Assembly (NCBI GenBank): GCA_905178155.1
Contig: CAJINV010000004.1
Coordinates: 8,080,144 to 8,144,143, forward strand
Length of the DNA stretch: 64,000 nt
Reading direction: 5' to 3'
Origin: Amoebophrya sp. A120
Lineage: Eukaryota > Protista > Dinoflagellata
Below are positions 641 to 63,690 of the stretch, piece after piece (within the stretch, counting starts at the first letter, position 1; each line of letters begins with the position of its first letter). Both the position numbers and the translations under genes were made by a program. Below the pieces are notes generated by a model, which made no database searches, was not told the DNA's origin, and worked only from the letters and a program-made list of their open reading frames with translations.

Positions 641-3600
641 GTGGAATCACACGGCGACCGATCAAAGTCAACAAAGTGGTCCTCTTCAAAATGCCCAACC
701 GATCGGGCAACAATACCAGCAGTGCCAATTTTTTTATTGCGCCGTCCCGCTCGCGAACTATCTGCAGGGGCACCAACCGCAGCCCGAGCATTTTTTTCAG
801 CACAACTTTCGGCAAGATGATGAGTTCACTGTCTACGTCGATCCGCTAGTCGATATACTTAACAAGGAGTGTGGCGAGGATAATTCGGAGAAAATCCTCG
901 ACACGATCGAACAATACCTACACCACCTCACCGTTATCAACGCCGAGGGGTGCTGCGCGGCTAGGATGGTAAACGACCACCTCAGTCTCTTGCGAAGAGA
1001 TGGAAACGAAATTTTGCGGCGGTTGGACACCGCCAAGAAAGAACTACTTTTCGGTGGGAAGGAAGGTAGATCATCCGGTAGAAGATCATCATCTTCAGAT
1101 GGTGCGACGAATGATAATTCTACCGGAGTAGGTCTTGGTGTGCTGTCTGCAAATAAGATCAGCGCGCTTTACTCGCTGTTCCTCCGAACGGTGTTAACCT
1201 CCTCAGCGCACTTCCTGTTCGCAACGGGTTCGGCTGCTAATCTTCCCACGACCACGAGGTTTCGCTTCCCGGAGAAGGCCTGGCTTTCCCTCCTTCGCCG
1301 GATCGCGGAGGACAGTCTATGCAATGCAAAAGCATCCCTGCACTAGTATAAATTGCATTACAAATTAGCACAGCATTACAAATTGAATTTGTAATGCTGA
1401 TTTACCTTGGGAAAGAGATTTGTAATGCATAAATGCAATTTGTACGAGTACGATGCTTTTGCACAGGATACAGACCGAGATTCGACGAAATTCTCGCGGA
1501 AAAAATCACGGAGAAAACCTTCCCGACCGTGTGGTGGCAAGTATGCATTGCAAATATGTCTGGGTCCGGAAAGTTGCAACTTGTCATGCTAATTCTGGAT
1601 CGTGCAAAAATCTGTGTTGTATGAATGCCAAAAGCTGTCCGCTTTTGACCAAGTTGGGAGGAAATTTCTCATGCGGGATGGCCACGATAGGGATCTCACA
1701 GAATCTGTCATGCTAGATCCTGCATTCCGGACGAGATCGATCATGGAAAATTTGTATGACAAGCCACGGAATCTTCCAGAGGACCCAGACATATTTGCAG
1801 TTCATAGCAAGCACACGATAGCAACGTTTTCCTCTCGGATTTACTTCTCGACCATGTATCCCACTTGCAAAAATCTCTACTGCGGAAAAGCGCAGACTGG
1901 GGAGAAGGATTGTCCGGCGAGAAGTCGAGCCGATTCTACCGGGAGAACTTATTCGAGTCGAGAAGAATCAAGACGAACGGGCGCGTGCACGAAAATTTCG
2001 ATTCGGTAGACAAGGAAACACTGGAAGTGTTGGACAAGATTACCTCTTTGCTCTCTGTCGTGTACCGGAAGGGGAGAAATAATTTCAAGTTGAACCACCA
2101 ATCCGATTTTTCCTCCACGATCTTCCAAATCGCCGCAAAAGCCGCGGTGCATTTAAAGCCAGGACCCTTAGCCTTCTGGCGCGACGGGTTTCAGAACGAC
2201 GACGCCCAATTCCAACAGCCCGACGGCGTTGGCAACTCGAAGAACCGGGAATACCGGAGGTGCCGGGGGGGCCGGGTCTGCGGGGAAGTTCCGGACCGGG
2301 ACAGAGCGGTCAGCGAGAGTTCTAGCGACGAGGAGCTCCCGGAGGACTACGACAGCGACCGAGATGGGTTGTGCAGCAAAGCGCACCTCGCGTTCAACAT
2401 GACGAACTACATGCGGCACCGGCTGGACAAGCAGCGGTTCATCTACCAGGCCTTGTCGAAAGCGCTGGAACTGATGGTGAGGAGTCTGGTTGGGGCGCCG
2501 ATTGTAGTGGCTCCCGAGCAGGACGACTATCAACATGTTGATCCCCAGAGCAGGATGAATTATCGGCATTTGAGTACCTGGAACGCAAACTACGCTATCG
2601 CGGTGGAGATCCACCGAGCTTTTCTCAAATCCACCCTGCTGGATAGCAAGACCTACGCGAAACCGAATAAGACGCACAAAGTGCCAAGCTTAGTCTTCTT
2701 TCGGTACCTGAGTGTTTTTCCGGATTTCTTCAAGATCGTGAAATACATCCGGCTGAACTTGCAGAAAAACTTGACCTTCTGGCGAACGAATCGCAACTTT
2801 GTCTGGGTGCCTCTCTATCAAATGCAAATGTGTCTGGGAGGTCTGGAAGGTTGCAACTTTTCGTGATGCTGTGTTTGGATTCTATTTCTAAAAAAGATTT
2901 GTCGAGCATGACCAGCAAGAGGAATCCACCTTCTACTACGTGGGGAGGGCGTTTCTCATGTGGAACAGGCATGAGGAGGCGCTGTAAAAATTTGTGATGC
3001 TAGGTCATGCATTACAGGCATCTTGGGTCTTCACGCAAAATATGCATGACAAACCTGTCACTCTTCCAGGCCCAGACATACTTGCAGTTGATACCCTCAG
3101 CAGCAAGGCCCAGTGGATCAAGAACGTGTACTACAAAACCTTCGCGTGGACCTACAAGCCGAGAGGGAGGTCCTCCGCGGATGTTGAAGATGTAGAAAAT
3201 AACCTTTCCCCTGCTCGCAGCTCTGATCCGGCTACTCGGAGGACCAATTCCTTCGGCACCAGTAGAAGTACTAAATTCCTGCATCCCAAACTCAACCCAC
3301 TCCCGGTGTCCGCGCTGGATTTTTCCGAGAAGCGAAACGGGCTGCAGGCACTGAACCCGGAAGATTTCTTGCACCTCCTCCCGACCGATAGTGTTCTCGA
3401 GCTCCAATCTGCGATCCATATCACCGCGGGGAAGACGGCGCAAATCAGCGATTATAGTGAAATGGCGCAAAACTTCAACCGGTTTACCACTGCGACCATG
3501 CGGTCGTTGTATTCGGGTGAAAAGGACTGGAAGCTGCAGGAACTGTTTACGAAGGAATTTCTCGAGAAGGGGCTGCACTGGTTCAACTGGTTTTTGGAGT

Positions 3601-7091: not shown

Positions 7092-10000
7092 ATGTCGGGG
7101 AACCAAGGCTTCCACAAGCCGGGCGGCAAGGGCTACGTGCTATGCAGTGCAAAAGTATCGTACTCGTATAAATGCATTACAAATTTCCTCAGCATGAGAA
7201 ATAAGATTTGTAATGCTGATTTATCTTAGGGAAAAGATTTGTAATGCATGATCGCAATACGAGCACGATACTTTTGCAATTCATACGCGCCGCCGCAGTG
7301 CAACTACCGCACACAGAGCTCCTTCATATCAAGTGTAAAAATGTCTGGGTCTGGAAGAATGGAAGGTCTGTCATGCTCTGCCAGCATGACCCCAAAGTCT
7401 GTCATGCACGTTACCCAAGAGCCCCGTTTTTTTGTCATGCAGAAACGCAGTTTGTCATGCAGAATAGGCAACACTTCGAAGCTCAGAAACTTGTCATGCT
7501 GAGCCAGCACTTGTGGCCGCCTCATGATACGCCAACCAGCATCACAAGTTTCCAGACCCAGACATTTTTACATTTGATACTTGACACTCGAGAACAAGTT
7601 CCGGGACATCTTCCAACGACTGGAGCCCTGGCGCACCAGTATCCTGAGTAAAAACGTCCCCAAACCAGAGTCAAGATGGGAAATCTGCTAGACAAACCAA
7701 CCAGCTCTGGTTGTTTCGCATGACAAGTTTATTGTCCTCGTAGTGTATTCCTGTTATTAGGTAGGTCAGCAGCGTCACAGATCTAGCGCATGATGCTGAT
7801 TATAGCATCACAAATTTCAAAACACGACTAGAAAATGCCTCTCATGGGGCTCCGCATGAAAAGCATTTTTACCATGCAGATTTGCATGACAACTCTGGGG
7901 TGGGGACGTTTTTACATAGGATAACCAGGAAAGGCGCGGGGGGCCGGGTCGCGGTGTATGGCGGGTCGCATCTCTACGTCGGAGCGCCGTATTTTGCGGC
8001 GCAGGCCGCCAAGCTCATGGGGATCGATTTGGTGTTCGTCAAAGCAGGTATCAAAATGTGATGAATAACAGGAGCAGAATGTCTGCGGTTTTGTAGGTTT
8101 GTTTCTGATAAGAAGTACCTTGCATATATAATGGTATTATTCCAAATAATTTGCAGCAACATTTTGCAAAGTTTGGAAACAGTAATTCTACGTCGTCATA
8201 GACCACGACTGTGCATCATAACAAGCTCCATCCTCCTGGTGTTCCAAGTATTCTTGTAAAACCTACAAAAAAACCACAAAAATCTCCCCAATTTTTCCAC
8301 TCCATTGCAGGCCACGCTTCGGTTGCGAAGGGGATCAAGGCAAAATCGTGCGACATCATGTGTGCGGAATACGACGACCCGAACGACTACAAAGCCTTCA
8401 CCACCGAGGACCGTGAAATTCTCGCCAAGTGCGACTGTCTGATCATCGGCCCGGGGTTGGGACGCGGCGAGGAGGTGAAGAAGATGTTGCGGGAGCTACT
8501 CGCGGACGAAACCATCTGGCCGCCGACGAAGCCGCTCGTGATCGACGCCGACGGCCTCTACGCCATGACCGCCCCCGACGCGTCGTTGCCCCCACCACCC
8601 TCCGCCCGGGGCGGGAAGCCGGCCGACAAGTGGAGCGCGGACAAGGAAACCATGGACCTGTTCTGGAACTTGTTGGAGTCTCGGAAGATTATGCATTGCA
8701 AAAGTATCGTACTCGTGTTATTGCGATCATGCATTACAAATTTTTTTCTCAAGGTAAATCAGCATTGCAAATTTTATTTCTCATGCTGGGGAAATGCGAT
8801 TTCTACTAGTACGACATACTTTGGCAATGCATAAAGATTTTGCAACAGCAAAACGGGGAAGAGGATCTTCCCGATGGGACGAAGAAGGCCGTGGAGCAGA
8901 TGACGACCTTTTCCAACCACGCCGCGCCTACGATTTTAACCCCGAACTTGGGCGTATGGAAGTGTCAGAATCGAAATTGACAAAATCAAAACGATTTGTC
9001 ATGCATAAAATGGATTCCAGTTCGAACTCAGTTTCTAAGTGGCGCATGACAAACTCTGGTGGTGTGCAAATCCAGTTTGTAATGCTGTTTAGGCAAAGAA
9101 GGCTGATTCTCTCATGCTGCTTTAGCAGCGCGAGCTATAACCCCAAACAGGCTTAGAATCGGCCTCACTTGCCTGCTCTGCAACACACGTATTTCGCGTC
9201 GTGCATTTGATGCATGACAAATTTTTCGATTTTGTCAATTTCGATCCTGACAGTTCCATAGGGCGAGTTGAAGTACGTCACGGAGGCGTTGGACAAACAC
9301 GTGTTGTGGTTCAACGAGAAGCATACGGACCACATATGGAATGCAAATATGCCTGGGTCTGGGAGATTGCGAGATTTGTCATGCTTGTCTGGCATGAGTC
9401 TTAAATCTGTGATGCATGAGCAGGAAAATGGCCTCTTGCCTGTCATGCAAATAAAACGGAGTTTGTCATGCGAAAAACGAAACACACAGAAGCGGCAAAA
9501 CTTGTCATGCTGGGCTGTATATTGTAGCGCGCCCACAATTCGTAGATTTGCATCACAAGTTTATTCCAGACCCAGACATATTTGCAATCCATATCACACC
9601 TTCTACGGCAACTATCCGAACGTCGACGAGTTGTGGCCGGTTTTGAAGCAAGTCCACCACGACCACGCTATCCTATGTAAAAACGTCCCCACCCCATAGT
9701 CAAGATGGGAAATCGGCTAGACAAATCCAAAAGTTTTGGCTGTTTCGCATGACAGATTTCAAGAACTCGTGGTGTAGTGCTGTTTGAGCTGGTTCAGCAG
9801 CATCACAGATCTAGTATGTCGCGCTGATTGGAGCATGACAAATCGCAAAACACGACTACAAAATGCTTCTCATGGGGCTCCGCATGAGAAACATTTTCAG
9901 CGTGCAGGTCTGCATCACAACTATGTGGTGGGGACGTTTTTAAATACGATACACGCGTCCGGGCAGTTGGCCGTGCAGCACTTTGTTCGGGAGCCGACCT

Positions 10001-11828
10001 TTGGCGTCACGTTCAACGAGGCCAAACCCGTGCAGCGCATGCAGCACACGTTTACGGAAGAACCGAAGACCGCGGCCCAGGAAGCCGCGGCCCACGCAGC
10101 GTCGGCCCAGGCGAAGGCAGCAACCCAGCAGGCGGCGGCAGCGCAAGCACAGAAATTGAAGGAGCAGAGGTACACAAATAGCAGGAGCGTCATGCATAAT
10201 CAGATATCAAGTGATAATATTTATTATCCTGTATGCATTGTTTTGTTTGTAGCTGAATAAAAATACTTATTTTGTAATGCCATGATATGCATAAATTATT
10301 TCGGCACTAATGACGTGAATATGAGACAGCACCAGCTGGTATTTGTCATGCGAAGTGGCACCGCCTCCACCACCCAAAATAGTATCTTCCAAGAAATATT
10401 TTTCTCGCTAACAGTGCTGCCAACGGCGGCGGCGATGGGAAAATCACGAAGTCTGGCTCCTTCGACATCCCGCCGGAGCAGCTCGGCAAGGAGCACATCA
10501 ACCCGGAGCTCCAACCCGATAATGTCATCGAGCAGCAGTACAAACACAAGCCCAAGAACTTCACCGGTGCCGTCGGGAACGGGTACGGTGGCGTCGAACA
10601 CCCGTCGACCGCGACCACAGATAACGCCGGGCAGGACGCCGCTGACAACCAAGTCGCACTGGAAATGGAGGCGAAACAACTGAACTCTGTTGTGGTGGAG
10701 AAGCAGCTGCACCACCAACCCGAGTCCGCGGTGAAGATTGAGGTGAACCCGTTTCAGGCCGAGGGCAAGGGGGAGAAAAAGAAGAAGGTCGCGCACACCA
10801 TCAAGGAGCTGATGCAGGCGGAGGAGGAGGCGCAAAACGGCCCGGCGACCAAGAAGCAGAAGAAGAACCAGAAAGGTGGTGGCAAGAACAATAATGGGCA
10901 ACAACAAACGATCGGACAGCAGTTGGGTATGCAGAATGCACCAGCTCCCCAACAGCAACCAGGACAGCAGCAGGGGCACACCATCCAGCAGTTACAACAA
11001 ATGATGAACCCAAACTACAACTACCAGGTGGACCCCAACGTGCCGCAGGTTGCGTGGAACAACCCGACTAAAATGGCCGACATGCTGAAGATGCAGGAGT
11101 ACAGGATGCGAATGGACCCGTCTTCTTTGATATGCATTGCAAAAGTTTCTTACTCGTACTAAAACTAATTGCAGCTATGCATCACAAATCTAGGTTGTTA
11201 AGGTAAATCCGCATTACAAATTTGAGTTGTAATGCTGAGCGAAATTGTATTGCAATTTGTACTAGTACGACACTTTTGCAGGGCATATTTGATCTCGTTT
11301 GACAGCAAGTACACCACCAACAGCTACCAGAACCCGTTGCGGCTGTCCCTGCACATCGTCGCGAAGGGGAAAAACGACACCATTGTTACCCCCGTTGCCT
11401 ACACCTGCGAGGAGGGCGTGGATTACGACGAGTGGACGGTGACCAACGCGTGTGTCTTCCACTCCGTGTCGAACTCCATCGGGTCTTCCCCAATCCGCGC
11501 GGGCGGGCTGGGGGACGTTTTGTCCGGCGTGATTGGTGCCTTGTTCGCGTGGCACCAGATCTGCCTGCGGAGCGGGGACCCGCGGAAACAGATGAACGCC
11601 CCGTTCCCGGAGGAAATCCTGATCCTGGCTTCCTACATCGTGCGCAAGGCCAGTCAACGGGCCTTCTTGAAGAAGTGTCAGCAGCGCAACTACCGCACCT
11701 TCTCTGCGGAGGATGTGTTGGCGGAAATCGCGTTCGTCTGCGATAACATCTACTCCTGGTTCGCCCCCGGCGGACACGGCGGAAACCCGGGTGGTGCACC
11801 CCACGGACCGCACCAGGGCGGAAAATAG
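7092..11828 (+). CDS. NAXD: ATP-dependent (S)-NAD(P)H-hydrate dehydratase (YjeF-C/carbohydrate kinase family), spliced
   Basis: Reconstructed motifs KGAGGRVAVYGGSHLYVGAPYFAA, IIGPGLGR, LVIDADGL, ILTPNLGE, VAKGKND and GGLGDVLSG. Contains 8 TIR introns plus GT-AG introns 8048-8310 and 10170-10414. Confidence 0.92.
7141..7285. mobile_element. TIR introner, family D (TATGCANTGCAAAAGTATCGTACTCGT)
   Basis: TSD CGTGC/CGCGC. Confidence 0.9.
7327..7579. mobile_element. TIR introner, family A
   Basis: TSD CTTCA/CTTGA. Confidence 0.92.
7640..7923. mobile_element. TIR introner, family B (TATCCTGAGTAAAAACGTCCCC)
   Basis: TSD ACCAG. Confidence 0.92.
8690..8833. mobile_element. TIR introner, family D
   Basis: TSD AAGAT. 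Confidence 0.9.
8955..9260. mobile_element. TIR introner, family E (TATGGAAGTGTCAGAATCGAAATTGACAAAATC)
   Basis: 33-bp TIR, TSD GGGCG. Confidence 0.92.
9335..9593. mobile_element. TIR introner, family A
   Basis: TSD CCACA/TCACA. Confidence 0.9.
9669..9951. mobile_element. TIR introner, family B
   Basis: TSD CACGC. Confidence 0.92.
11131..11287. mobile_element. TIR introner, family D
   Basis: TSD TTTGA. Confidence 0.88.
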
Positions 11829-11890
11829 AACAGGATGTTGTTGTGGGAATAAGTAGAAGATGTTGTAGTGTTTCTTCATGCGAAAGTACT

Positions 11891-11934
11891 ACTATGTACA
11901 ACTCAAAGAGTGAACTATGTACAACTCAAAGAGT
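11891..11934. repeat. 21-bp tandem duplication in the NAXD 3' flank
   Basis: ACTATGTACAACTCAAAGAGT x2 separated by GA. Confidence 0.85.
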
Positions 11935-13987: not shown

Positions 13988-14204
13988 TATGACGGTGCAC
14001 AACTCCCCCTCCCCCTCATTTGTATAGCATGACCGGCAATACAGGCATCAGCAAGAGTGCCGGTTTTGCATGACAAATTTGCACTGGATTGTAGTGCTAT
14101 TTGGGCGCCCAGAACTTGTCATGCATAATAGTGACAGGAGGAAAAGCGTGGATTTGGTATTCTGCATGAGAAATGAGAACGAGGGGGAGTTGTGCACTGT
14201 CATA
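13988..14204. mobile_element. TIR introner, family G (TATGANRGTGCACAACTCCCCCTC), at the kinase 5' end
   Basis: TSD CACGG. Confidence 0.9.
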
Positions 14205-14217
14205 CACGGAGCCTTGG

Positions 14218-17200
14218 ATGAGGACCAGCAAGTGGTGGATTTTTCCCCGTTGTTCGTCCGGTCGCCGCAGCTGTGTCGTGAACCGAGCAAGCAGGAGGAT
14301 TTGTTCTGCCCAGAACAAGAACGACGGCAGAACTTCTGCTCTCAAGAACAGCAGCACAATTTGTTCCCAATTGCAGCTGCAGTTTGTCTCTACGAGAGCA
14401 GTTGTCCGGGTGGTACTCCTGTTTTCACTGCTGCTGGCACTGGCCGGAATAGAAACGACGACACAAAAATTCGGAACAATAGTAGAAAACAACGACGGCG
14501 ACACAGGAATAAAAAACTTCATGACGTCGTCGGCCCCCCCGACGAAGACAACAACAACCACCGCAGATATTTTTTTCACAACCCCCACCTTTTTTTCCAC
14601 CCAATTACGCGACAATGTAGGGTTTCATTTTCCCAGTTACTACGACGAGCAGAACTACAACCAGCCGGCGTTCTCGAGGAACACAGGCAAAAATACCGCA
14701 ATTGGCGTCGCGCATGGTAGTGAACTGTCCGGGAATAGTGGTGACTCAACCACCGCCTCGATCGACGAGGCTTTGCTGCTTGCGGAGGGTGATGACCACG
14801 AGGACGTTCTGCTCAACACGAACGACAACAACGAAAAAAGCAGCCGGAGTAGCAGCGGTGCCTCATCGACATCTTCGAAGGCCGATGGCGAAAGTGGCTC
14901 AGATGCAGTACCACTACCTCCTGCAGGTGACGGAAGTAGTAAAGCGAAAGAAGGAGCAAAAGAGGACCTGTCAACTACAGGACGAACGACAGCAGCTTCT
15001 ACCACTATTTCCGATAAAAACAAGAATCAGATCGTGCTCGACGACGACATTTTTGACTTAGAGGAGGAGGAGGAGGAGCAGAGCTCCGCGATTGACGACG
15101 ACTTTATCATTTCGGCAGGAGGAAGTAGTCGGAGAAATTCCAATTTCCCCTCCTCAGATGTGGAAGCAGTAGAGCCAGGATCTTCTCGCATCAACGGCCA
15201 GGAATTAGTCAAGACTGGTCTTCACGGTGCATCTCATCATCATGGAACTCACCACCATGGTGCTCATGGACACCATCACAGTTCATCTGCGCACCAAGCC
15301 CGCGCGCCAATCCCCCCAGGGGACATCGGCAACGACGTTTTACTCGTGGTTCTCGCGGACCCGGGGGAGGTCCGGGCTGTGCGGAAGGACACCGGGGAGC
15401 CGATTTTCAGGTACCAATTAGGGAGGCCGCTGGTCGGAGGGTCATTGGAACAGGCAAGTAGTGGTGCCAAAACTGGAACTAATGGGGGAAACGGTTTATT
15501 CGAGGACCATGGTACGAAAAATACCGGTGGCGCAACAGGACCAAATGCAGCCGGGCATCAAGGTGCGAGTAGCTCTGGTCGTGCAGGAAATAGTAACCAC
15601 GCCGGTGCAGCTGCTGGTCCAGACCCCGTCCCCCGGTTCGCGGTGGATTTCGACGGTAGCGTTTTGTACACGCGTGACAGTGTGCAGTTCTTCGCGCTGC
15701 CGCACCTGAAGCTCAAGGACTTGGTGGAAAAATCCCCGATTACGTCGTTACCGGGGTTCCCAGACCTGTATTTCACGGGGCAGAAGCAAACAAAGTTCCA
15801 CCAGGTAGAATTGAAGTACGACGCGTCCACGATTATCGGGCAAACAGCAGCGGATGCTGAAAATGCTGGACCAACATCGTCGGGTACTAGCTCGAGTGGA
15901 AGCGACGGGAGTGCTGGTAGCGGTACTCATAGCACTTCTTCCTCTACTTCGCAATTTAGCGGCTCCTCAGAGGACCAGCTGGGAACTCCGAGCAGTAGCA
16001 CGCACAGCCCGCATTCCAGCAGCATCGCAACAACCACCACCACCTCGAACAGCCCGGGTGGAGGTCTTGCGCACCACCATGTCGGCACGTCGAGTGGAGG
16101 AGCGACGACCCCTTATAGCGTTGGGCTGTCCTACCTGGCCCCACAACACACGGTCACCGCACATAGTATGGACGGAAGTACAATAACCGGCGAAGCGTGC
16201 AGTAGCGCCAGCGGACCTTCGAATGAAGATAAAGCGCACAGTCATTTTGGTGGGCTGTTTTCAACAACATCTTCGGACGGAACGGAGGGCGCGGATGATA
16301 ATTCCGCTGCTGCGGCCTCTGTGTTAGACAAAGTCACCACCACGGTGAACACGATTTTGCAGCAATCAACGACAAGCAACGCCGGCTCCTGCGACATTGT
16401 GCCGCCAGCACACCTCGCCAAGCAAAATGAATTCGCAAGAACTACTACTTCCGGCGCTCAGGGCGGTGACGTCGTGAGCAGTCAAGAAAGTGCGACATCG
16501 ACGGCGAAAGTGATCGTCTTTGGCGAGGCGGAGTACATGCTGGAAGCGAGAAACGCGAAGACCCATTCCCGGGTCTGGACGGCGTTTCACACGGAAATCA
16601 AGCCCATAGAGCTCGAGCAGGTTCGAGATTTGCCGGAGCCGTTGCAGCAACGGGTGCTGAGAACACTATTTCAAGATCGAAAAAACGTATAAAAAATATT
16701 TTGCTGTTTTTGTACTATTAGTTGTTGGAGGTGCCTCTGCATGACAAAATCCTGTTTTTGCAACATGACAAACACCAAGTTCTTCATGTTATTCACACAA
16801 AATATAGGTTTTCGTCGACGGCGATTCTGTAATTCTCGCCCACACCAACCGCCGCTTGCATTTTGAGTCCCGCGTTCATTCCGTTCACGCGTTAATTCCG
16901 ACCCTGTCCGCGGCGTTGCAGGCCCTCGCCCCCTTGTTGTCTCCCTCCTTCACCGTCCCGCCACAACATCAGCTCGACCGGGAGGAACAGCAGGAGCGAT
17001 CCCGGTGGAACCGGTTCACCGTGGCGGCGGTCCGGCACGGCTCTCTAGTACCTGCAGCCTCTATCAAATGCAAATATGTCTGGGTCTGGAAGAATGCAAG
17101 TTTGTCATGCTTGTCTGGCATGTTTCGAGAATCTGTGTTGCATAGGCGCGAAAAGGCCCTCTTGCCTGTCATGCAAGAACGCAGTTTGCCATGCGGAATA

Positions 17201-20200
17201 CGTAAGACATGGCAGCCAAAAAATTTGTCATGCGTAGCTGCGTATTGTAGCGGTGCGTCTACCATTCACTTTTAGCATTACAAGTTTCCAGACCCAGACA
17301 TTTTTGCATTTGATAGCCTCCCCCTCCGGGCAAAACCAGATTCACGACCACAGCATCGACTTTCTGCGGAATATGCATTGCAAATATGTCTGGGTCTGGA
17401 CGAATTGGAACTTGTGATGCTGCATTTGGATTCCAAAAAAATCTGTATTGCATGAGCAGCAACGGGCATGTAATTTTTGCTAGGCGGAGAAGGCGTTTCT
17501 CATGCGAAAGGGGCATCAAGAAGCTCTGAAAAAATCTGTCATGCTAGGACATGCATCACAGACATCATGGCTCATGCAAAACGTGCATGACAAGTCTCAG
17601 AACTTTCCAGAACCAGACACATTTGCAATTGATACGGAACGGCAACGTGCAGGTGATCGACGGCGAGGAGTATCACCCGAGCCCCAGTCCCAGCGGGGGC
17701 GGGGAGTTGGTGTTGGTCCGCGACATTCATCTGCAGACGCGGAATAGCGAATTGCTGCAGCGGGATGTTTTGCAGAGGTTAGGGCTACCGTCGGCTGGGA
17801 TGGTGGAACATCAAGCTGGTGGTCCTCATGGGACGCGCAGTAGTACTACTAACGGTCAGCACGACCCCGTCAGCAGGTATCATCAGCAACACCATCCCGG
17901 TCAACATCATTTTCACCCCTCCGAATCAATTCTTAACAACCCGAGGCTGTTAATGCTGCCCGGCCCGGCTGGAAGCACTAACCAAGACCACTACAACAGC
18001 GGGCACCATCAGCATGGTTCATCAAATCACGACTCACACGACGACATCAACTACCGCTACTTCCGTGGCGGGCATCCACCGGCGCATTTGTCCGCGAGCG
18101 TGTGGCAAAAGCTGAAATCTTTACTCGACCGGGACCGGTATAGGACGAGCTTTCGAGACGGCGATGCGGACCAGCTGCCACCTTTTTTCGGCGATTACTT
18201 TGACGACTTGGAGTACTTCGACTACACTCATGGCAGCATTACAGATTCTTCCGGTACAGCTAATTCCATCCTCGAGGGGGAGGAAGATTTGTTACAACAA
18301 CATAACGCTGGACCACAGCAGCACAAATTCTCCTCTTCCAGAGCGGCCATGCGCCACTTGTACGCGCAGCGGTCTAGATTAATCGCGGAGTACCTGCAAG
18401 GGGCGAATTACAATCCGTTCATTGACCAGGAGAAGCTGCCGGTGCAGTCCAAAATTATCGATAAGGACGAGCTGGAAAGGAGTAGTCGAGATAAAAAGGG
18501 GTTCCGCAAGTACGTACGGGACTCGATTGTTGATTCCAACTTCTGGAAGGCGATTATCGCTGCGATCGTCGTGGGGATGGTTTCCTCTGTTTTCGTTTTC
18601 GACATGTACTTTGGCTACGAACTCCGCCGGCAAGTCCCGCTGATCGCCGGTGCCATGGCGCTCCGCTTGTATCTGAACGCGTTGGAGAGGTCCGGGATGG
18701 CGCCGTGGTTCATGATGCTCAGCGTCTACGCAAGCATTCTCGCGATCATCCTGGCGCCGCAGGCCGGCGTTATTTCGCCTTTTAGTAATTATGCCACAAT
18801 AGGAGCATCAAGCGCTGGTCTTCTACCCGGAGCAGGTGGCTCAACATCTTTGGATTCAACAGGAATAATAAACTATCCAACTTTCTCCGCTTTGCGGTTG
18901 TTTTTCACCGCCGTCGCCTTCGCGGTTCCCTGTTTGTACCTCGGACTGAAGGTTCCGGTGGAAGATGTGGAAAAGTGGAAGGAACAGTGCGAAAAGGAAT
19001 CGGCAAGGCTGCAGCGAGCGTCGACCGCTTCGGGGTCGTCGTCGGTCGTGGGAGAAAATGGTAATATAATTGATACGTCGCGGCTGACGACGCAAGACGG
19101 TGGAAATAAATCAACAGTGGACGGCGCCGATGACAACACCACAGCTGCACCCGGGGCGACAACTACGATAGGAGAAAATGAAAAAACCACGAAATTTCAT
19201 CCGGGTGGAGAAAAGACAGCAACGAATGGCTCCCCAGAGCTCAGGACCACCACTATTGCAGCCAGCACTTCGCTTTCGCAGCAACTCGAGGGGAATTTCC
19301 TGCTCGGCTACCAGGGGCTGCGCCAGTGCCAGGTTCCGCCGGACTCGCAACTGGGGTTGTCGTTGAACAACACCTTGATGTTTCGCCAGTACGAGGACGT
19401 TACTTATTTGGGGGAAGGCGGTTTCGGGGTCGTTTACAAGGCGAAAAACAAGCTCGACCAGTCCTACGCAGCGTTTAAAGTGAAAAACTACCGACTCACC
19501 TCCACCGAGAACATCGCGCAGATAGAGCGCTCTTTCAACGAAGTGAAAACTTTCCTCGCGATGAAGCACAAGCACCTAGTGGATTTCCACATGCACTGGT
19601 GCGAAGAGAGCCAGTTTTTACCCGATAAAAGAACCGTGCAGAAGGGCGGGCAAGAGTGGCCGTTAGATGAGGACAACGCGGGTGGAGGTTTGAGTTCGGA
19701 TGTAGGAGGAGCTGCCTTGGGTGGAACGAACAATCCGGAAGACCAACCGGGGATATCAAATGTAAAAATGTCTGGGTCTGGAAGAATGCGAGATTTGTCA
19801 TGCGCGTTTTGCATGAGCCATGATGTCTGTGATGCATACCCTAGCAATACAGGTTTTTTGGCGGCTTCTCGATGCCTATTCCGCATGACAAATGCCTTCT
19901 CAGCGTAGCAAAAATTGCATTCCCTTTGGTACTCATGCAATACAGATTTTTTTGGAATCCAAATGCAGCATCACAAGTTGCATTCTTCCAGACCCAGACA
20001 TTTTTACATTTGATAGGGGAGCGGGACGGACGACTTGGCTCTGTTCCCCAACGACCCGGCGGCCCATGCGAGTATATCAAAAGGAAAAACCCCCCCTCCC
20101 CATATCAAAACGAAGTTTCTGATGCTGGATTTGGGTACACAAATCAGCTTTGTATTGCAGAGAGGCATTGCGGACAGATCTCCAGGCTAGATAGGGGCGG

Positions 20201-36733: not shown

Positions 36734-45151
<8,418 letters not shown>

Positions 45152-47370
45152 CTGTGGGCACTTCTTGCGCTGCCTCTGTACTTCTTGTATCTCCTCGATG
45201 ATGGCAATTTCTCTCGGCTGTGATGTGCTTCTTTTACATACATCAATCGCCTCATCAAAAGCATCAAAATAGATGTAGTGGAATTCGCCCTTAGCTTTCC
45301 CTTTTCATACTGCGGAAGAATGGGCTGGCTGGACGGTGAAGAGCCGAAAGATGTTGTTTTGAACAAGCGGACAATAAGTAATATTGACGAACCCCATTGT
45401 TTTAATACTCTTCGCGGCATCAGTTGTGTAAATGATAATCCCAAAAAAGCACTCAGCTTCTACTTCACATGCGAAGAAGATGGTGCATGCAGCACTTCTA
45501 GCAGATTAGATCATTTGTAGATAAATTCTTCGATTGGTGGACACAACAAACAAAGAATAGAATCTAAAGTAAGCACTAGCCCCTAATCCTAAAACAAAGT
45601 AATTATTACAAGAACATTTTTTGTCACCGACATCACTCTCTAAGTCGATTTTTTTTTCCGTTGTTACTGTTAGAAGCATGACACTACCATACGACAATAA
45701 GTGTCACAAGATCATTATCCGTATTTTTCTAAAGCCTGCCATAGCCTCCTGGAGTGAACCAAGACAGCACGACCGGCGTTTTTACAGCGACCCGCCTCGT
45801 CGTGAAGATCATCCTACACGCAAAAGAAAACTTGGTCGCGAAAGTCGGCGCCATGGTGTGCATTTTGCTTTTTCAAGTTATGTAGTCCTGTACTGAGTAT
45901 TTACTACTTCCAAGGTCGAAGTTTAGGGCTTGGTTGTATAAAAATACTAGCAAGAATCTTCATCTTACTTTTTTCAACAGCCGTCATTTTTCGAAAAATG
46001 CGATGAACAAGATCGTACCAATTATCCGACGGATTGCTACCTAAAACCAGACGAAATTTTGCATACTGAGAATGAGAACAAGCACTATAGGAATAAACAT
46101 TCAACCACAATTCTTCTTCGAGCTAAATCAATCATGTCGCTACGAGGTACTTACTTACTAGAGTTTAAACAGCGTTTCGAGATTAGAATTGTGGGCACGG
46201 GCTGTCAGGATCGTGACAGCTGTGCTCATTGATAGCTGACGAGCAAGAACATAATTATGCTCGAATGAGGTGGACGTGGTCCAAGTATTATGTTGTTGAA
46301 GAGAGCGTACACAGTTATTGTCTTATTTTCTGTACTGGAAAAAAATTTTGTAATTCAGTTTCTGATTCATCGCCCTCGCGGTCGCGACGTAAAGCGAAAG
46401 TCTACCAGCAACATGTAAAGTTTTTTTTGTCGAATCAAACAACAAACACGCCGGTACAAGTCTCTCAATCTCCGTAATACGAGAAACAAGGCAAGATGAA
46501 AAGGGAGCAGCAACGGCGGTTCCTCTGTCAATCCTGTTGATTCATCGGTAGTTTTTGCTGGCTGTGTTTTTTTTGTATAATACGGTTTCTACCAGACAGC
46601 TCTCGCTTTTCTCACACCGTTTTGACACAGTACTACAACTAGACCATCGGTTATTTTCATTGGAAGTCAATACATACAGCATTGTAATGGCCAGTGTCGT
46701 GGTGGATCATGTACCAGAGATATCGACTTCGGTTGCAACTCCTGCTGCTCTTCGCAAAAATGAAAATCTGCTGTTAATATTACGCATGGACAAAGGTCCT
46801 CGAGGTGGAGGGCCATTGCTTCTTGAAGTCGGACCAGCAAAATATATCGGTGACCCGCATTTATTCTCTTGGCCCCGTCGATTGATGGTTGTACTCGGAT
46901 GTTTTATGACCCGGATCTGAACCAGCGTTAAAAACGGTGCGACAGCACACCGTGTCAGTCAACTGGTATTTCACTGTTTTAAAGCACGATGAAACTATCT
47001 CAACAGCAGCTAAACGACCAGTGGTTTGTCTCATCTTAGTGAGATGATCCGCGAGCTGTTGGCACCACGACCTGTAGGTTTGTAGAGACGCTTGTAACAA
47101 GCGGTGTCGTCGTACCAGTATCCTCGTAATTTTTAAATTCGACCTGTTGTACTACACCACAAGCTCTGACAAAATTTAACTTTTTCAAGACGCAAATTCG
47201 AAAAAGTGCGATAGTCTATTTATTTCAGATTTGTCACTTTTTGATACCGCTTCGGAAAATCGTCACCGCAAGCAGCTGCAATTAAAATTGCCATTTCGGA
47301 AAAAATTATATATGATTTTTCGACTTTTTCACCTTTTTGTGTAAATTCTTTCCCCACGAGGATTGAAAAA

Positions 47371-55634: not shown

Positions 55635-58600
55635 ATGGCAAAATCCACCTCAACAATCCCTATTGGCTCGTTCCGTGATGCGGACGAAGAGCTTCTTTTG
55701 GATTTCTTGCCCGAAAGTCTAGCCCGCTATCCTGACCAAAAACATCCCCACCCCCAGAGTTGTCATGCAGATTTGCATAGCAGGAGCATTTGTACTGCGC
55801 ATCCACATGAGAGGCATCCTGTTTGGGAACTTGTAATGCTGTAAACAGGATAAGGAGATGAATTTGCTATGCGACTCTCCTTGCTAGACCGCACTACACT
55901 ACAGCCTGCAACTTCTCATGCGTGACTCCTAAAACTTTCAAGTTTGTGTTGCAAAATCACCATCTTGACTCTGGGGTGGGGACGTTTTTGCTCTGGATAC
56001 CCGCATGCTGTTCCACAGCCCGAAGGAGCAAGGACGAGGAGGACCACGGCGCGGCACGGGAAGCAGACCGATGAAAACCGATGTTGAACAAGCAGAAGAT
56101 GTCAAAAATCCAGCTGTTTTTTCACCGCCGAACCTGCTGTTTTGTATGGAAAACAAGGACCTTGTGGACGACATTTTGCCCACCTCCGACCTCAACGTGG
56201 CCGCCTTCGGTCGGCCCTACGCGAAGTGCGAGGCCTTCGCGCGGGAGCTCTTGCAATTTGCGAACAAGCATATGACCTGCTCAAACGTGACAATCTCAAA
56301 CGTTACAACAGAAAAATCTCGGTTTTGTATTGCATGATGAGCATGACAGACTCGGACAGCATTCCACTTTCTGCAATACAAATTTCGCCAGATAATTCTA
56401 GTGAGTGCGGGTTGGGACTCCAGAACTTGTGATGCGCAATCCTATGAGAGTTGGCTACATAATGCACCTCTTGCAACACAAATTCCCGATTCTATGGTAA
56501 CCGATTTGAGATTGTAACACCTGAGCGGGTTATAAAGCAGCCCGATGTTTTCTACGACCAAGCGCTGATGCCCTTGTTATCCTGAGTAAAAACGTCCCGA
56601 CCCCAGAGTTGTCATGCAAATCTGCATGCTGAAAATGTTTCTCATGCGGTGCCCCATGAGAAGCATTTTCCATTCATGTTTTGGAATTTGTCATGCTCCA
56701 ATCAGCATGATATACTAGATCTGTGATGCTGCTAAGCTAGCTCGAACAGCACTACACTACGAGTCCAAATTTGTCATGCAAAACAGCCAAAACTTGTGGA
56801 CTTGTCTAGCGGAGTCCCCATCTTGACGATGGGGTCGTGGGGATGTTTTTCCTCAGGATCCTCGTTGAAACAAAGCTACGCTATTGCCGAGCGGTTTTTC
56901 TGCTGCGAAGAAGATTTTGACGGTCTTCACACGATTGCCGGCTTGGGCTTCGTCCTATCAAAATGAAAAATCCCCCCACCCCATATTCAAACTAGAAATT
57001 TGTGATGCAGATTTGTGGTCACAAATCAGCTTTGTTATGCTAGAAGGGAAAAGATGCGGACTGCAGTGCTGGTTATGGGAAAGCCTTGCCTCTTCAGCAT
57101 GACAGGGGGCAGCTGGAAGTCGGAAACAGCATGACAAATTGCTTGCAAACGAGGCGAAAGCTGCGTCTCTTGGCCTTCTAGCATTACAAGTCGACTTGTG
57201 TACTCAAATACAGCATCACAAATTTCGTTTTCGATATGGGGAGGGGGGATTTTTCCTCTCAATACGTCCCGAACTGCAGTCACGGCATGAAACTCGTCGT
57301 CGATTCGTTGCTTTTAGATCATGTATCAAATGCAAAAAAGTCTGGGTCTGGAACAAGAAAGCAACTTGTCATGCTAAATCTGAATCATGTAAAAATCTGT
57401 GTTGCATGATTGCGAAAAGCTGTTCACTTTCGACCTAATCGCGAGGCAGTTTCTCATGCAGGATAGGCATGACAGAACTAACACAGAATCTGTCATGCTA
57501 TGTCCTACATACCAGGCCTCATGGGTCATGGAAAACCTGCATGACAAGTCTGGCATTCTTCCAGACCCAGACGCTTTTGCATTTCATATCATGAGATGAG
57601 TGGCACTAGTAGTGCCCCGCCTCTCAAAATCGCGGTTCTAGACCCGATCTACCCGGCGACCAAGTCGCTTTTGCACTACTACGAGACTGGGTGCGCCGCG
57701 GCCGGCGGTGGGGGGCAGAAAAAGAATGCCAAGAAGGTTGAGCTCGTGGAAATTCCATTGGAAACCACGGTCAACGCATCAAACGATCCGAACGTTGCGC
57801 TTTTTTGCGAGGACGTGGCGACTTTCCTTGCTTCCTTGCAGCGGACATTCAACGACACGCACTTCCAAGTCCTCATTGCAGACGAGATCACGAGCCAGAC
57901 GGCGCGGCATCTGCCGGTAAGAGAGGTTGGGAAGTGGTGCGAGGAACGAAACGTGGTGTTCATTGTGGACGGCACGCAGCAATTCGACTTCACGGACAGG
58001 AGGGATGTGAAAGAAAGGCTCGTATCCAAGAAAAACAAATTGTAGGTGTAACTTTTTTGGAGGAACAGCATTGCAAATTTGTCTGGCATGATAGCAAAAA
58101 CCTGTCATGCGCAGATGGTACGTGAAAATGCCCTTTAATGGACCCTACGACGCATGCCAAGCATGACCGACGCAATCATCTTGCATGTTGCGCATCACAA
58201 AGTACAAAAACAACGTTTTTTTTTTTGGATAGCTCGAGTTTGTGGACTACTACGTCTTGTCCACACACAAATGGCTCGGAAACACGAAAACCGCTGGGGT
58301 GGTCCGGTGGCGGAAGATGAATAAGCAGGGGGTGTTACAAAATGATGAAAGAGACCGTGACAGGATTTTTAGCACCACAAAGAAGATGAAACAAAAGCAG
58401 ATTCCGACCCCGACCGCCGTTTCCGCAGTCAGTTTTGGCTTCAACAAGCAAAACTTCTCCAACGACCAGCAGGATGAAAACACCAATAATACAACCCGCG
58501 ACTCGCTGTTCCTCTGGACCGGCATGGGTGCGCACTACATTCCCTACATCTGTCTGGGGCAGGCGTTGCTTTTGTACGAGGAATACGGAGCGCGGCAAGT

Positions 58601-61600
58601 GCAATTCGCAAATGAATTGCTGGACAAAGGGCTGGCGCTGCTTCCGATGGCGCCGGCGTCGGTTCTGTACAGTGATGGTACAACTAGTAGGGGCACCGCC
58701 GGCGGTGAAGGAACATCAACACCTCCGGGGCGAACAGGTAAAAAAAATTGCCGCACGATGGAACTCGTGCTGGTGCAGAATGTCCGCGAGCGGTTTTTTC
58801 CGAGTCAGAAAGATAATGTTCCGATCACCGCGAACGACTTCCAGAACTTCCTGCAGAAAGTGTACGGCATCTTCGTCAGCGTCAAGCCGTACGAGGCGGA
58901 GAAGCTGGCGCAAGGTTGTGCGGGTGCGAACAGCGCAGGTGATCATGTCGGCAAGTGCGAGTTTGTAGCAGCAAAGAAGACGAAGACCGGCGCAACAGGA
59001 AATAATGCAAATAGCAACGACATGTCGAAAATAAGAACATCCGAGGCCTTTTGGCTTCGTCTGTCCTGCTGGAGCGGAAACACCCTCCGTGACTTCGAGC
59101 GATTGGCCAACCTGCTGTCGCACAATATCAAATGCAAAAATGTCTGGGTCTGGAAGTATGCAAGTTTGTCATGCTTGTCTGGCATGACTCGAGAATCTGT
59201 GTTGCATAGGCACGAAAAGGCCCTCTTACCTGTCATGCAAAAACGCAGTTTGCCATGCGGCATGCGTAAGACATGGCAGCCAAGAAATTTGTCATGCATA
59301 GCTGCGTACTGCAGTGCGTCTATCATTCACTTTTAGCATTACAAGTTTCCAGACCCAGACATATTTGCACTTGATACACAACGTCTCTCTGCAAGACTTG
59401 GTGAAACTTCTCTCCATCGCGTACTTCCCGTACGAGAGCGACAAGGCACTCCACGCCGCGGTCCAGGATGAATTCACGCAATTTGACCACAGCAGCCCGG
59501 AAGTGACGGCCAACAGTACCACTACACAGAGCGGCACGGGTAATCGACTTCTAAATCAGCCCGAACAGATTTCCTCCCGGTCGCCATCTAAATTGTCGGA
59601 AGCGAGCGTGAAAAGCGACAAAACAACAAGCTCATCGACCACGAGCGCGATTTCTGCCAAAACCTTGAATCTCCTCCGCACACCGACGAAGAAAGAGAGA
59701 ACCCAGGCGCTGCTCCGGTTCCGCGAAGTTATCAACTGCAAATATGTCTGGGTCTCGAAGAAGGCAAGATTTTTCATCCTCAGCTAGCATGATTCTCAAG
59801 TCTGTCATGCACGTTACCCAAGAGCCTCGCTTTTCTGTCATGCGGAAACGCAGTTTGTCATGCAGAATAGACTACAGTCCGACCACATCAGAAACTTGTC
59901 ATGCTGGAACGGCACTTGCGGCACCCTAATCATTCGCCAAACAGCATCACAAGTTTCCAGACCCAGACATATTTGCAGTTGATAGAAGTGTTGAAGCACC
60001 AATTCCTGCAGACCTTCAACATCTACGAACGGCTTTTCTCCACCATCGCGACCTATCATTTGTAAAAACGTCCCCACACCAGGGTTGTCATGCAGATTTG
60101 CAACGACAGGAACATTTGTGATGCGCATCTCCATGAAAGGTATTTTTAGTCGTGTTTTGGAATTTGTAATGCTGTAACCAGGATAGGCCGATGGATTTGT
60201 GATGCGTTTGTCCTTGCTACCCTGCACTTCACTACGAACTCCAACTTGTGATGCGTGAGAACCAAAACTTCTAGGTTTGTGTTGCAAAGTCCCCATCTTG
60301 ACTCTGTCGTGGGGACGTTTTTCCTTTTGATACGACCCCCGGACTGTTCTACCGCGCGGAGCGGTTGCGACACCACTTGATTTTCTATCTCGGCCACACT
60401 GCGGTTTTTTACTGGAACAAACTGATCTCCGCTGGCTGGGTGTGTGCGAACCAGCGCTTGCACGAGAAATTTGAAGCGATTTTCGCAGTGGGGGTGGACG
60501 AAATGAGCTGGGACGACCTGTTGGAAGATAATTACGACTGGTGCGGGTTTTCGGTGGAGCAGCAAGAGAACTATCGGAAGGAAGTGGAACAGTACAGGGC
60601 TTCCGTGCGGGAAGAGGTGTGTCGCCTGATCGACGAGTACGTGCTGGAGGAAGATATCACTGTTGGTCGGACGAATCCACGGACTGCACCAGATGAAAAC
60701 AACACCTCTTTCCTCGCCTTTCAACCGGACGAACGGACTGTGGAAAAAAAGAACAGCAACATGAAAAAACCACATCAGCTATCAATTGCAAATATGTCTG
60801 GGTCTGGAAACTCGTGATGCTAAAATGTGCATGATGGAACAACTTCCGAATGCAGACCAGCATGACAACTTTCCGAAGCACTTTCTGATATGCTGCCCGC
60901 ATGAGAAACTGCGTTTTTGCATGACAAAAATGGGTGCGGCTTTTGTCGGTTATGCAATACAGATTTCCCGGGAATGTAAAGCTAGCATTACAAGTTCCAA
61001 CTTTCCAGACCCAGACATATTTGCATTTGATATCAGCAAGTGCGCGACAACGCGCCACTGTTAAAGGCGACTTGCGGGAAACTCGTGTCGGAGTACATTT
61101 TGAAGTATCAAAAGGAAAAATCCCCCCTCCCCATATCAAAACGAAATTTCTGATGCTGGATTTGGATACACAAATCAAATTTGTGTTGCAGTAGAGGAAT
61201 GCACGCAGATCCTGAGCCTAGGCGGGGGCCTTTTGGTGTAGGCGCCTAGCATAGTAGACGGCTACCTTGTAGGCCGCAGAGCATTACAAATCGCCTGCAT
61301 AACGTGGCGGCCAGCCTGAGTGTGCCTGCTTGCAAGACAGACCCGATTTGTGGTCACAAATCAGCAACACAAATTATCGGAAACATACCTTTTCGATATG
61401 GGGAGAGGGGATTTTTCCTTTCGATATAAAGTACTGCACAACTACGTCCGCTACCAGCAACTTAGGTGGTGGAACCAACAACGCCCCCCTTGCGAAGCAG
61501 TTGCAAAATACCATGATCTGGATTCTGCTGATGGGCGCCGAGCACGAAAAGATCCACCAAGAAACCAGCTGCCCCATCCTGTCCCAGATGCCCTTGCAAT

Positions 61601-63690
61601 ACTTGAACAAGACACACCGGTGGCTGTACCCGATGGCAGAAGTCAAGACAAGTTCGTCCTCTTACTACGAAAGATCCGGCAACCCGCTGGTGCCCGTGAA
61701 AATGACGAGCTTGCTGAACACGGAGGATGAAGAACCCGCGGTGCAGCTCAGGTTCGGGAAAAACCACCTCGAATCGGATTTCTACGGGTGGGACAACGAG
61801 TTTGACAGTGAGCAGGCGAGTTTGTTGCCGTTTCAGGTCAGCCAAACGCTGGTGTCCAACGCGGAGTTTTTAGAATTTGTGTTGGACGACGGGTACAAAA
61901 AAAAGCACTTCTGGACGGAGGAAGGGTGGCGGTTCGTCCAGGACCTCAACGTGGACCGGCCGCGGTTCTTATGCAAGAAGAAAAGTGTGGAAGTGTGAGT
62001 CTGTAATGCATAAGTGCGTACCACAATTATCACTTGTCATGCTAGCCAGCCACGATGTCCTTTTTTCATGAGTGTTTTTGAGTACTAGCTGCGCATGACA
62101 GGATTTCTTTGTCATACAGAGCAAATTTGTCATGCAGTCATGGCACAAGACACGTTCACTAAACACAGTTTTTTTCCTTTGGACACTTCTGGCTCGACGC
62201 GGATAACGAAGTCGAAATGCAAACCGGCCGACCGTATAAAATGTAAAAATGTCTGGGCCTGGAAGATTCCCAGGCCTGTCATGCAGATTTTCCATGATCC
62301 ATGTCGTCTGGAATGCAGGACCTAGCATGACAGGTTCTGTGAGAGTTCTATCATGCCTATCCGGCATGAGAAACTGCCTCTCACTTAGATCAAAATTGGA
62401 CAGCTTTTGGCATTCATGCAACACAGATTTTTGCACGATCCAGAATTAGCATTACAAGTTGCAACCTTCCAGACCCAGACATATTTGCAGTTCATAGACC
62501 GGTGACCAGCAGCGTGACGAAAGCTGAGCTGGACCAGGTTTTACTACAACTTGATGGTAAGAACAAAAACCACGAGCAGATGCAAAAGAAACAGGACAAG
62601 CACAAAAATTTCGTCTACCGGGCCATGCTCTCCATCATCCCCATGCCGTGGGACTGGCCGGCGGAGGTCAACTATGCACTGCAAATCTGTTTGGTGTTCT
62701 GGAACAATGCTTAAATTTGTCATGCCTTTCTAGCATGACAACTCTGAGGTTTCTTATGCCCTCTTGCCTGTCATGCAAAAACGCACTCTCGTCCCAACAT
62801 GCGGAATTCGCAAAACATCAGAAATTTGTGATGCGTGGCTGCATTTTCAAGTACGCTCATCAATCGCAGACTTGCATCACAAGTTCGTCCCAGACCTAAA
62901 CATTTTTGCATTTGATATGAACCAGCTCGAGGCAGCGGCGTTTTGCAAGTGGAAGGCGGAGAAATTGAGCCAGCCGGATTTGCGACTGCTGGGGCATCCA
63001 GAGCAACTGTACCTGGCGCTGCATTGCGAAAAGGGGTTTGGGAAGAACGCAAATTTAGCAGGTTTTGCGTCGCCGACCAGCGTGAATGTGCACTATGGGT
63101 ACAGCAATTGTAGTACACCGTCGGAGGTGGATTCATCATCGTCAAATAACCCGAAAGAGAAAAAAACGAAAATCTACGACATTGAGGGGAATGTTTGGCG
63201 GCACTCGATCTCCGTACTCACCCTAATGGACGGGTTTCAGCCGCACATTGCCTACGACGATTTTACCCTCCCTACCATTGATGGGGAGCACAACTTTATC
63301 GCAAGAAAAACTGTCTCAGTCTCAAAACTTTGCAGACGCAGCAATACAAATTTGCCAAGCAAGAAACAAAAAATCTGTGATGCGTTCAAACATCAAGGGA
63401 TAACACGTAAGGAAGGACGTCTTTCTTGATGCATTTCCGGCATGACAAAAAACTGTCTCAAGGAAGTTGCGCATTACAGCTTGAGAGTGAGTAGACTGTG
63501 ACAGTTTTTTCTCGCGACAAGTTTTATCCTGGGCGGGTCCTGGACCAGTATTGGAAACTGCGCGAACCCGGGGTCCAGGTACGGGTTCCGCCGGCACTTT
63601 TACCAGTACGCAGGGATCCGATTCTGTAGCGACTTCGGCGGGAAAAATCTGCCGGTACTTCTTGTTTTTCGTACGAACTTCTCGATGTAA
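55635..63690 (+). CDS. ovoA: Fusion of PLP-dependent class-V aminotransferase/C-S lyase and OvoA-type 5-histidylcysteine sulfoxide synthase (ovothiol pathway); 3' end uncertain
   Basis: N-terminal part: FVPNCSHG, DEITSQT, FIVDGTQ, DYYVLSTHKWLG. C-terminal part: LRHHLIFYLGHTAVFYWNKL, GVDEMSWDDL, MGAEHEKIHQETS, FYGWDNEF, MPWDWPAEVN, EGNVW, GGSW, RYGFRRHFYQYAG. The frame is continuous across 15 TIR introns. Confidence 0.88.
55728..55999. mobile_element. TIR introner, family B
   Basis: TSD CCCGC. Confidence 0.92.
56271..56534. mobile_element. TIR introner, family I (TATRACCYGCTCA..ACAATCTCAAA)
   Basis: TSD AAGCA. Confidence 0.88.
56578..56860. mobile_element. TIR introner, family B (ATC end)
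   Basis: TSD CTTGT/CTCGT. Confidence 0.88.
56956..57264. mobile_element. TIR introner, family C
   Basis: TSD CGTCC. Confidence 0.92.
57324..57588. mobile_element. TIR introner, family A
   Basis: TSD TCATG. Confidence 0.92.
58023..58231. mobile_element. TIR introner, family F-like
   Basis: TSD GCTCG. Confidence 0.87.
59126..59376. mobile_element. TIR introner, family A
   Basis: TSD CACAA. Confidence 0.93.
59730..59984. mobile_element. TIR introner, family A
   Basis: TSD GAAGT. Confidence 0.92.
60054..60332. mobile_element. TIR introner, family B with C-type outer right end
   Basis: TSD CGACC. Confidence 0.9.
60780..61032. mobile_element. TIR introner, family A
   Basis: TSD TCAGC. Confidence 0.93.
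61106..61426. mobile_element. TIR introner, family C
   Basis: TSD TGAAG/TAAAG. Confidence 0.92.
61970..62185. mobile_element. TIR introner, family F (ACA end)
   Basis: TSD GTTCT/CTTCT; restores PRFW. Confidence 0.82.
62235..62496. mobile_element. TIR introner, family A
   Basis: TSD GACCG. Confidence 0.92.
62673..62917. mobile_element. TIR introner, family A
   Basis: TSD TCAAC/TGAAC. Confidence 0.9.
63297..63519. mobile_element. TIR introner, family F (ACA end)
   Basis: TSD AACTT/AGTTT; restores HNFILGGSW. Confidence 0.85.

Follow-up and report, generated by a model that had tools for sequence, protein, structure and literature searches.

The closest described relatives of the elements studied here are the introners of the dinoflagellate Amoebophrya sp. 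A120, whose inverted repeats begin with TAT, seven variable bases and a run of A, and which are flanked by direct repeats of 3–5 nt and removed by non-canonical splicing (Farhat et al. 2021, PMC7789003). According to the same text, more than 60% of A120 introns are non-canonical, U1 was not detected and no transposase was found. The stretch analysed here, referred to as the window, comprises 64,000 nt of A120 contig CAJINV010000004.1 (positions 8,080,144 to 8,144,143, forward strand; coordinates below count from its first letter). It comes from the same organism and carries the same elements, with terminal inverted repeats (TIRs) starting in TAT, short direct repeats and removal without GT-AG ends. 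The text passages of Farhat et al. considered, figures aside, describe terminal inverted-repeat and direct-repeat motifs only; the internal motif TGT(C/G/A)ATGC that is our subject, its helical phasing and a fixed cut site are not among them. The introner elements of A120 are thus already known, and what is new is the examination of the internal motif by a decay test, an orientation test and an analysis of GT-AG introns.

Introners in general are described as non-autonomous elements with TIRs and target-site duplications (TSDs) that create introns and are biased towards genes (Gozashti et al. 2022, PMC9860276; 2025, PMC12130899), a description that fits the A120 elements. Typical introners recruit GT and AG, whereas the A120 elements here do not (PMC9860276, PMC12130899). 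No internal motif was found in text passages of the introner literature (PMC7789003, PMC12130899, PMC9860276, PMC11282704, PMC11453091, PMC12005148; figures and the datasets of PMC12130899 aside), in which the term "subterminal" has no match in PMC12130899, nor in the abstract and outline of bioRxiv 2020.10.14.339549, whose full text could show one. A full-text literature search for TGTCATGC returned, among the matches listed, titles unrelated to introns or dinoflagellates.

Outside introners, the IS607-family element IS1535 is reported to carry four helically phased 9-bp motifs 20–60 bp from its end, and hAT elements to carry subterminal repeats (PMC6188088). As in those systems, where the mobilising protein is described as binding the repeats, A120 introners have short repeats that lie 20–60 bp or further from the terminus and are helically phased or variously oriented; several repeats inside both ends and a helical phase to the end are IS607- and hAT-type features that they share. 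Unlike IS607 and hAT elements, in which the element's own transposase is described as reading its own motif, a single motif is here common to families whose TIRs differ, the elements themselves being introns, and GT-AG introns hold copies as well. In the P element, too, binding sites lie internally and repeats lie subterminally, their distances differing between the two termini, and host factors also take part (PMC7776569), although P, unlike the A120 introners, has a 31-bp TIR, an 8-bp TSD and a THAP transposase; this likeness is one of description, and no sequence relation is claimed. We give roughly an even chance to the reading that the motif is a phased, double-stranded DNA-binding site used in the mobilisation of introners by a predicted binder. 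For a genome with tens of thousands of non-canonical introns and neither a transposase nor U1 reported (PMC7789003), a defined motif and spacing would offer bait for the missing protein.

The motif is concentrated in introns

Nine gene models were built on the window, with 11 GT-AG introns and 83 non-canonical TAT..ATA introns (1317..63523, plus strand, in eight of the models); none of the latter was placed in the 14 kb of non-genic DNA. Exon 60338–60778 matches an A120 protein at 100% identity; in a kinase model the 5′ part is uncertain and two internal stops remain. RNA support came from contigs of runs X1–X4, which derive from one sample and whose RNA status is only guessed; joint-based counts cover 30 of 79 joints. 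Twenty-seven of the 30 match the gene models exactly, the other three being jumps caused by repeats, and in the part of the kinesin model outside these joints the exon lengths sum to 934 against 932 + 2 of the RNA contig, after two boundaries had been fitted. At least 21 TAT..ATA introns are RNA-confirmed, the removed piece being the element plus 5 nt, with no GT-AG ends; the contigs give splicing as yes or no, splicing efficiency lying beyond their reach. Raw RNA runs X9 and X10 (206 and 4 reads aligned, nearly all partial and on repeats) were uninformative.

The window holds 242 exact copies of TGT(C/G/A)ATGC (141 plus, 101 minus strand), together with five of the fourth variant, TGTTATGC; its commonest 8-mer is GCATGACA. 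Expressed as a weight matrix, the motif reads approximately AAA(T/C)(T/C)-T(G>C)T(C>G>A)(A>T)TGC, or about AAAYY-TGTVWTGC. TAT..ATA introns account for 227 of the copies in 22,055 nt (7.2 expected; 10.3 per kb), with at least one in 74 of 83, and GT-AG introns for 7 copies in 2,034 nt (0.37 expected, P = 1 × 10−7; 3.4 per kb), with one or more in 6 of 11. Exons contain 2 copies in 25,094 nt (0.08 per kb) and non-genic DNA 1 copy in 14,166 nt (0.07 per kb), which bears out the initial annotation's impression, formed by eye, that the motif is rare outside introns. This confinement is a trend, since copies also occur in a repeat at 1–651 (7.7 per kb; see the last section). The broader proposal that the motif marks the introns of all families, canonical ones included, goes too far: no exact copy is present in 9 of 83 TAT..ATA introns or 5 of 11 GT-AG introns, and only 16 of 86 predicted GT-AG introns without a family match have one.

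Motif sites keep a helical phase to element ends

A TIR-pattern search of metagenome contigs gave 163 stretches, at least 80 of them from the related assembly JACKZZ01; the pattern had no match in viral contigs. From these, 150 loci yielded 610 kb of non-redundant sequence, or 674 kb with the window. Elements of the loci are up to 98% identical to those of the window, and motif variant counts follow the same pattern (897, 465 and 311 versus 28). Loci and window together provided 535 full-length elements in 16 families, with TATC or TATG at 499 left and 482 right ends and a perfect 5-bp TSD in 372. In this larger set the coding frame is open across the junction for 444 elements and clearly not for 12.

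Every family has one layout, in which a TAT(C/G) terminus is followed by a short family-specific repeat (about positions 16–30) and then by the motif; each of the 16 family consensuses contains 2–6 motif sites under a loose consensus. The short repeat is a tandem repeat in the TIR that differs between family groups (for example TCTGGG-TCTGGA, CCCCCT-CCCCAT or GTGTAA-GTGTAA) and is a candidate family-specific site. With motif and termini masked, similarity persists inside four groups (0-1, 4-6-7, 8-13 and 10-12), and the best match across groups has an E value of 0.017. The families had been called unrelated, which is too strong given that TAT(C/G) ends and 5-bp TSDs are common to all, but no similarity across groups goes beyond that value. 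The motif copies had also been said to point inward from each end; this is true of 22 of 32 family ends, while in two families the copies face outward, and in one they all lie on the same strand. In the family 1 introner intron at 17061..17319 (plus strand; element 17062–17315, TSD GCCTC), which had been singled out as an example, the sites at 17103, 17167 and 17226 and the reverse site at 17275 are exact, whereas those at 17134 (TGTGTTGC) and 17187 (TGCCATGC) are one-mismatch variants.

The spacings of about 20, 31–33 and 39 bp noted at the outset had hinted at helical phasing, and such phasing was confirmed. At 22 of the 32 ends of the 16 families, the first inward copy starts at a distance of 33–35, 41–45 or 54–56 bp, and the best period is 10.5 (R = 0.83). 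With the data reduced to 15 group-level values, R is 0.78, a value reached by 0 of 3000 random draws. This phase is kept despite differing TIR lengths. Between same-strand sites, 31–33 bp is the commonest spacing, accounting for 17 of the 27 that do not exceed 70 bp and occurring in 8 of 11 family groups. Taken with the use of both strands, the 10.5-bp phase points to a signal in double-stranded DNA.

Under the reading we favour, a protein would bind the motif, whose copies are set off from the element ends by whole helical turns, in pairs that lie three turns apart and face the same side of the helix, and would help to assemble the complex that moves the elements; it could be a transposase domain or a host cofactor. 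Families with different TIRs may carry one motif through dependence on the same factor, the motif being common to them because the factor is, and family identity may come from the family-specific repeat at TIR positions 16–30. Selection would act mainly while copies compete for mobilisation. A120 TIR elements with open reading frames (ORFs) related to the integrases of long terminal repeat elements are described in PMC12130899, and these integrase-like ORFs are a candidate source of the binder.

Conservation among copies and decay after insertion

Across copies of a family the motif is 4–5 times more conserved than other positions: the fraction differing from the family majority is 0.015–0.09 in motif columns, the degenerate fourth excepted, versus 0.23 in other columns. 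Using TSD mismatches as an age clock, we compared 127 older copies (3–4 of 5 TSD matches) with 167 others, after excluding 27 copies with two or fewer matches as likely boundary errors. The divergence gained in older copies was 0.032 at motif positions 1–5, 0.031 in conserved TIR columns, 0.043 in other conserved columns, 0.016 at the TGC and 0.005 in the four end bases TAT(C/G). Loss of most of the motif therefore keeps pace with the TIR, TGC decays at an intermediate rate, and the terminal TAT(C/G) persists; for families 0 and 1 the TIR rate is biased downwards, since the search pattern prefers exact TIR ends there. Copies without any intact site showed no deficit (observed 4, 2, 2 and 0 versus expected 2.2, 0.09, 1.7 and 0.17).

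The idea of a signal kept after the TIRs decay thus largely fails the age test inside families, where of the motif TGC alone is slower than the TIR; what speaks for it are the exact pairs at 32–35 bp in GT-AG introns that otherwise have no family match. Two separable signals emerge, a terminal TAT(C/G) that is kept after insertion and likely serves splicing, and a phased internal motif that is kept mainly among mobile copies.

GT-AG introns and a possible host role

The seven copies that had been assigned to GT-AG introns all lie in such introns of our gene models, six in number and all on the plus strand. Three are supported by RNA joints, namely 10170..10414 (copies at 10273 and 10344), 37112..37242 (37211) and 43902..44062 (43948); two by exon-length sums against an RNA contig, 40894..41066 (40939) and 41376..41502 (41410); and one, 16687..16807 (reverse copy at 16739), by reading frame only. 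The copy at 37211 is a remnant of a truncated family 5 introner, whose first ~103 bp align from intron position 8 (hidden Markov model (HMM) E value 7.7 × 10−22), while the other five introns have no family match.

The sample was enlarged with ab initio predictions from the loci, of which 87 of 261 were kept (GTA start, GC below 47%, strong flanking exons), or 86 after removal of one family match. This filter was applied because the gene finder over-predicted introns in intergenic DNA; its own non-genic rate is unusable, and background rates were taken from the non-genic DNA of the window and the remaining loci DNA. On the window all 9 introns that passed the filter are real, 8 with exact ends, its splice-site matrices having first been seeded from the window.

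Several observations count against the mobilisation reading. Exact copies occur in 16 of these 86 family-free introns (22 in 15,891 nt), at 1.4 per kb versus 0.14 per kb in remaining DNA. Same-strand pairs in family-free GT-AG introns, the window included, are spaced 32, 33, 33 and 35 bp, with two others at 51 and 71, so that four of six fall in 32–35 bp (chance 0.0005). The median family-HMM score of this group is 7.7 bits, compared with 6.1 for planted motif pairs and 18–62 for simulated remnants at 0–20% divergence. A mobilisation-only site leaves the motif rate, the pairs and the scores unexplained. Within families, TGC decays at about half the TIR rate (bootstrap P = 0.02 overall, 0.04 in families 0–1 and 0.28 in the others), and there is a mild sense bias (60:39 in family 0, 40:22 in family 1). 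No transposase or integrase was seen in 104 ORFs scanned, out of 268 non-redundant ORFs of at least 170 aa in 610 kb, and the text of Farhat et al. reports no transposase in A120 (PMC7789003). Finally, the families may share a deep common ancestry, in which case the phasing values would partly depend on one another.

The family-free copies are unlikely to be neutral remnants of the sampled families, because the HMM scores resemble those of planted pairs and because simulated remnants at 30% divergence keep an exact copy in only 6–10% of fragments, too few for the 19% observed. The alternatives are extinct or unsampled families, or host selection; BLAST found no relatives in 674 kb for 21 family-free motif-bearing GT-AG introns. 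We consider that the copies in GT-AG introns other than 37112 are probably remnants of old elements that the host has retained in part, and the presence of the motif, pairs included, in roughly one in five predicted ordinary introns hints at a second use by the host.

The strongest competitor to mobilisation, possible though clearly less probable, extends this second use: a host DNA-binding protein would mark introns on the chromosome, for chromatin placement or as help for co-transcriptional splicing where U1 is reported absent, the mark would make introners tolerated, and the host would keep or gain pairs in short ordinary introns. The pairs, scores and missing relatives just described all favour it, as do the slower decay of TGC, the near absence of the motif from exons and non-genic DNA, the text report that U1 was not detected (PMC7789003), and the shorter length of motif-bearing family-free GT-AG introns (median 140 versus 191 nt, P = 0.004). 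Yet about four-fifths of predicted GT-AG introns have no exact copy and most have no strong site, five RNA-confirmed introns have no site above background (given below), and the motif in GT-AG introns shows no significant phase to the introns' own splice sites (P = 0.36–0.54). Most motif positions also decay like the TIR, and the source could again be unsampled or extinct families. A GTAT start is commoner in motif-bearing GT-AG introns (12 of 39 versus 4 of 47, P = 0.012), as introner ancestry predicts. The most specific version, in which a host protein on paired TGTVWTGC sites three turns apart marks introns on DNA and guides the reportedly U1-less spliceosome during transcription, introners having invaded by carrying the mark and short ordinary introns keeping or gaining it, we regard as doubtful. 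If the host does keep the GT-AG pairs, they would amount to an intron mark read on DNA.

Splicing proceeds without sense copies of the motif

An RNA signal, that is a splicing enhancer or intron-definition site on the pre-mRNA read by a protein or by a small nuclear RNA replacing U1, appears improbable in comparison with mobilisation. The restriction of the motif to introns suits it, as does a mild sense excess, including 17 sense versus 11 antisense exact copies in family-free GT-AG introns (P = 0.34). Strand specificity is lacking, however: among the 370 of 535 elements assigned a gene strand, exact copies number 567 sense and 486 antisense. Five RNA-confirmed TAT..ATA introns (7639, 8689, 9668, 22697 and 36783) have exact copies in antisense only; these include two family 3 introners on the plus strand, 7639..7927 with three copies and 9668..9955 with four, each with an RNA joint. 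In five further RNA-confirmed introns no site scores higher than the background set by non-genic windows; three of these introns are GT-AG (8048, 23104 and 44601) and two TATG..CATA. The latter, both on the plus strand with RNA joints, are 44417..44524, in which even the weight matrix detects no copy (best score −1.6), and 45135..45313, which has a non-AG end and no motif above background (best score 1.7). Since antisense-only and site-free introns are spliced, the motif is not required for splicing, and an RNA signal is largely refuted. In family 3, moreover, all copies lie on one strand and elements are inserted both ways (11:19), which shows that motif–motif pairing is not needed either, and 10.5-bp phasing would not be expected of single-stranded RNA. 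Of the three roles originally offered, a DNA-level site, whether of transposase or chromatin type, therefore agrees with the data, unlike an RNA intron-definition site. Splicing likely relies instead on the terminal TAT(C/G)..(C/G)ATA.

A single cut position fits all 21 RNA-confirmed TAT..ATA introns and leaves four bases of the 5′ TSD in the exon. Under this shared cut the intron has the form N-TAT..ATA-NNNN, and its TA at +2/+3 aligns with the GTA of the canonical introns here.

Least credible is the absence of any present function, the motif being an ancestral internal repeat of one founder element spread passively through all families: common termini and TSD length and the passive carriage into 37112 agree with it, but motif columns 4–5 times more conserved than their neighbours largely refute it, the motif survives between groups without other detectable similarity and keeps phase across different TIR lengths, and a slow-mutating context is countered by TGC triplets outside sites, which vary by 14–39% in family 0.

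Other features of the window and loci

The repeat at 1..651 (minus strand) is not an introner. It carries five exact copies (66, 267, 312, 401 and 513) and a variant (9), all on the minus strand and outside modelled introns, with no RNA aligned. It is shared with locus L026 at 90% identity over 578 nt (window 76–651, L026 3147–3713), and in the shared part all motif copies face inward from one end, which reads TGTGATTC, one base off the motif. For an ORF upstream of the repeat in L026 (2655–3167), a resemblance to an integrase C-terminus was considered and is unsupported, with no Pfam match, no longer homologue and a single near-identical match.

A search of the loci for diverged pairs, paralogous or allelic, with a common insertion yielded no usable family element. 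Two locus contigs, L033 (~9900–10330) and L024 (~930–1400), are 89% identical over 6.3 kb and share one introner whose sequence, flanks included, is 100% identical, beside strongly diverged GT-AG introns; this introner was either spread by gene conversion or is an assembly artefact.

Within the gene models, two back-to-back elements at one TSD (AGCAC) at 50699–51275 produce a zero-length exon, and a 7-nt exon lies at 50375–50381. A candidate intron at 26745–27516 was discarded because its removal broke the reading frame. At 24327–25322 a 57-nt direct repeat, with copies ~940 nt apart, surrounds a GC-rich stretch, and one RNA contig jumps back over it. The gene at 55635–63690 contains 15 introners, and the exon tested gives matches to 5-histidylcysteine sulfoxide synthase (ovothiol-type) proteins.

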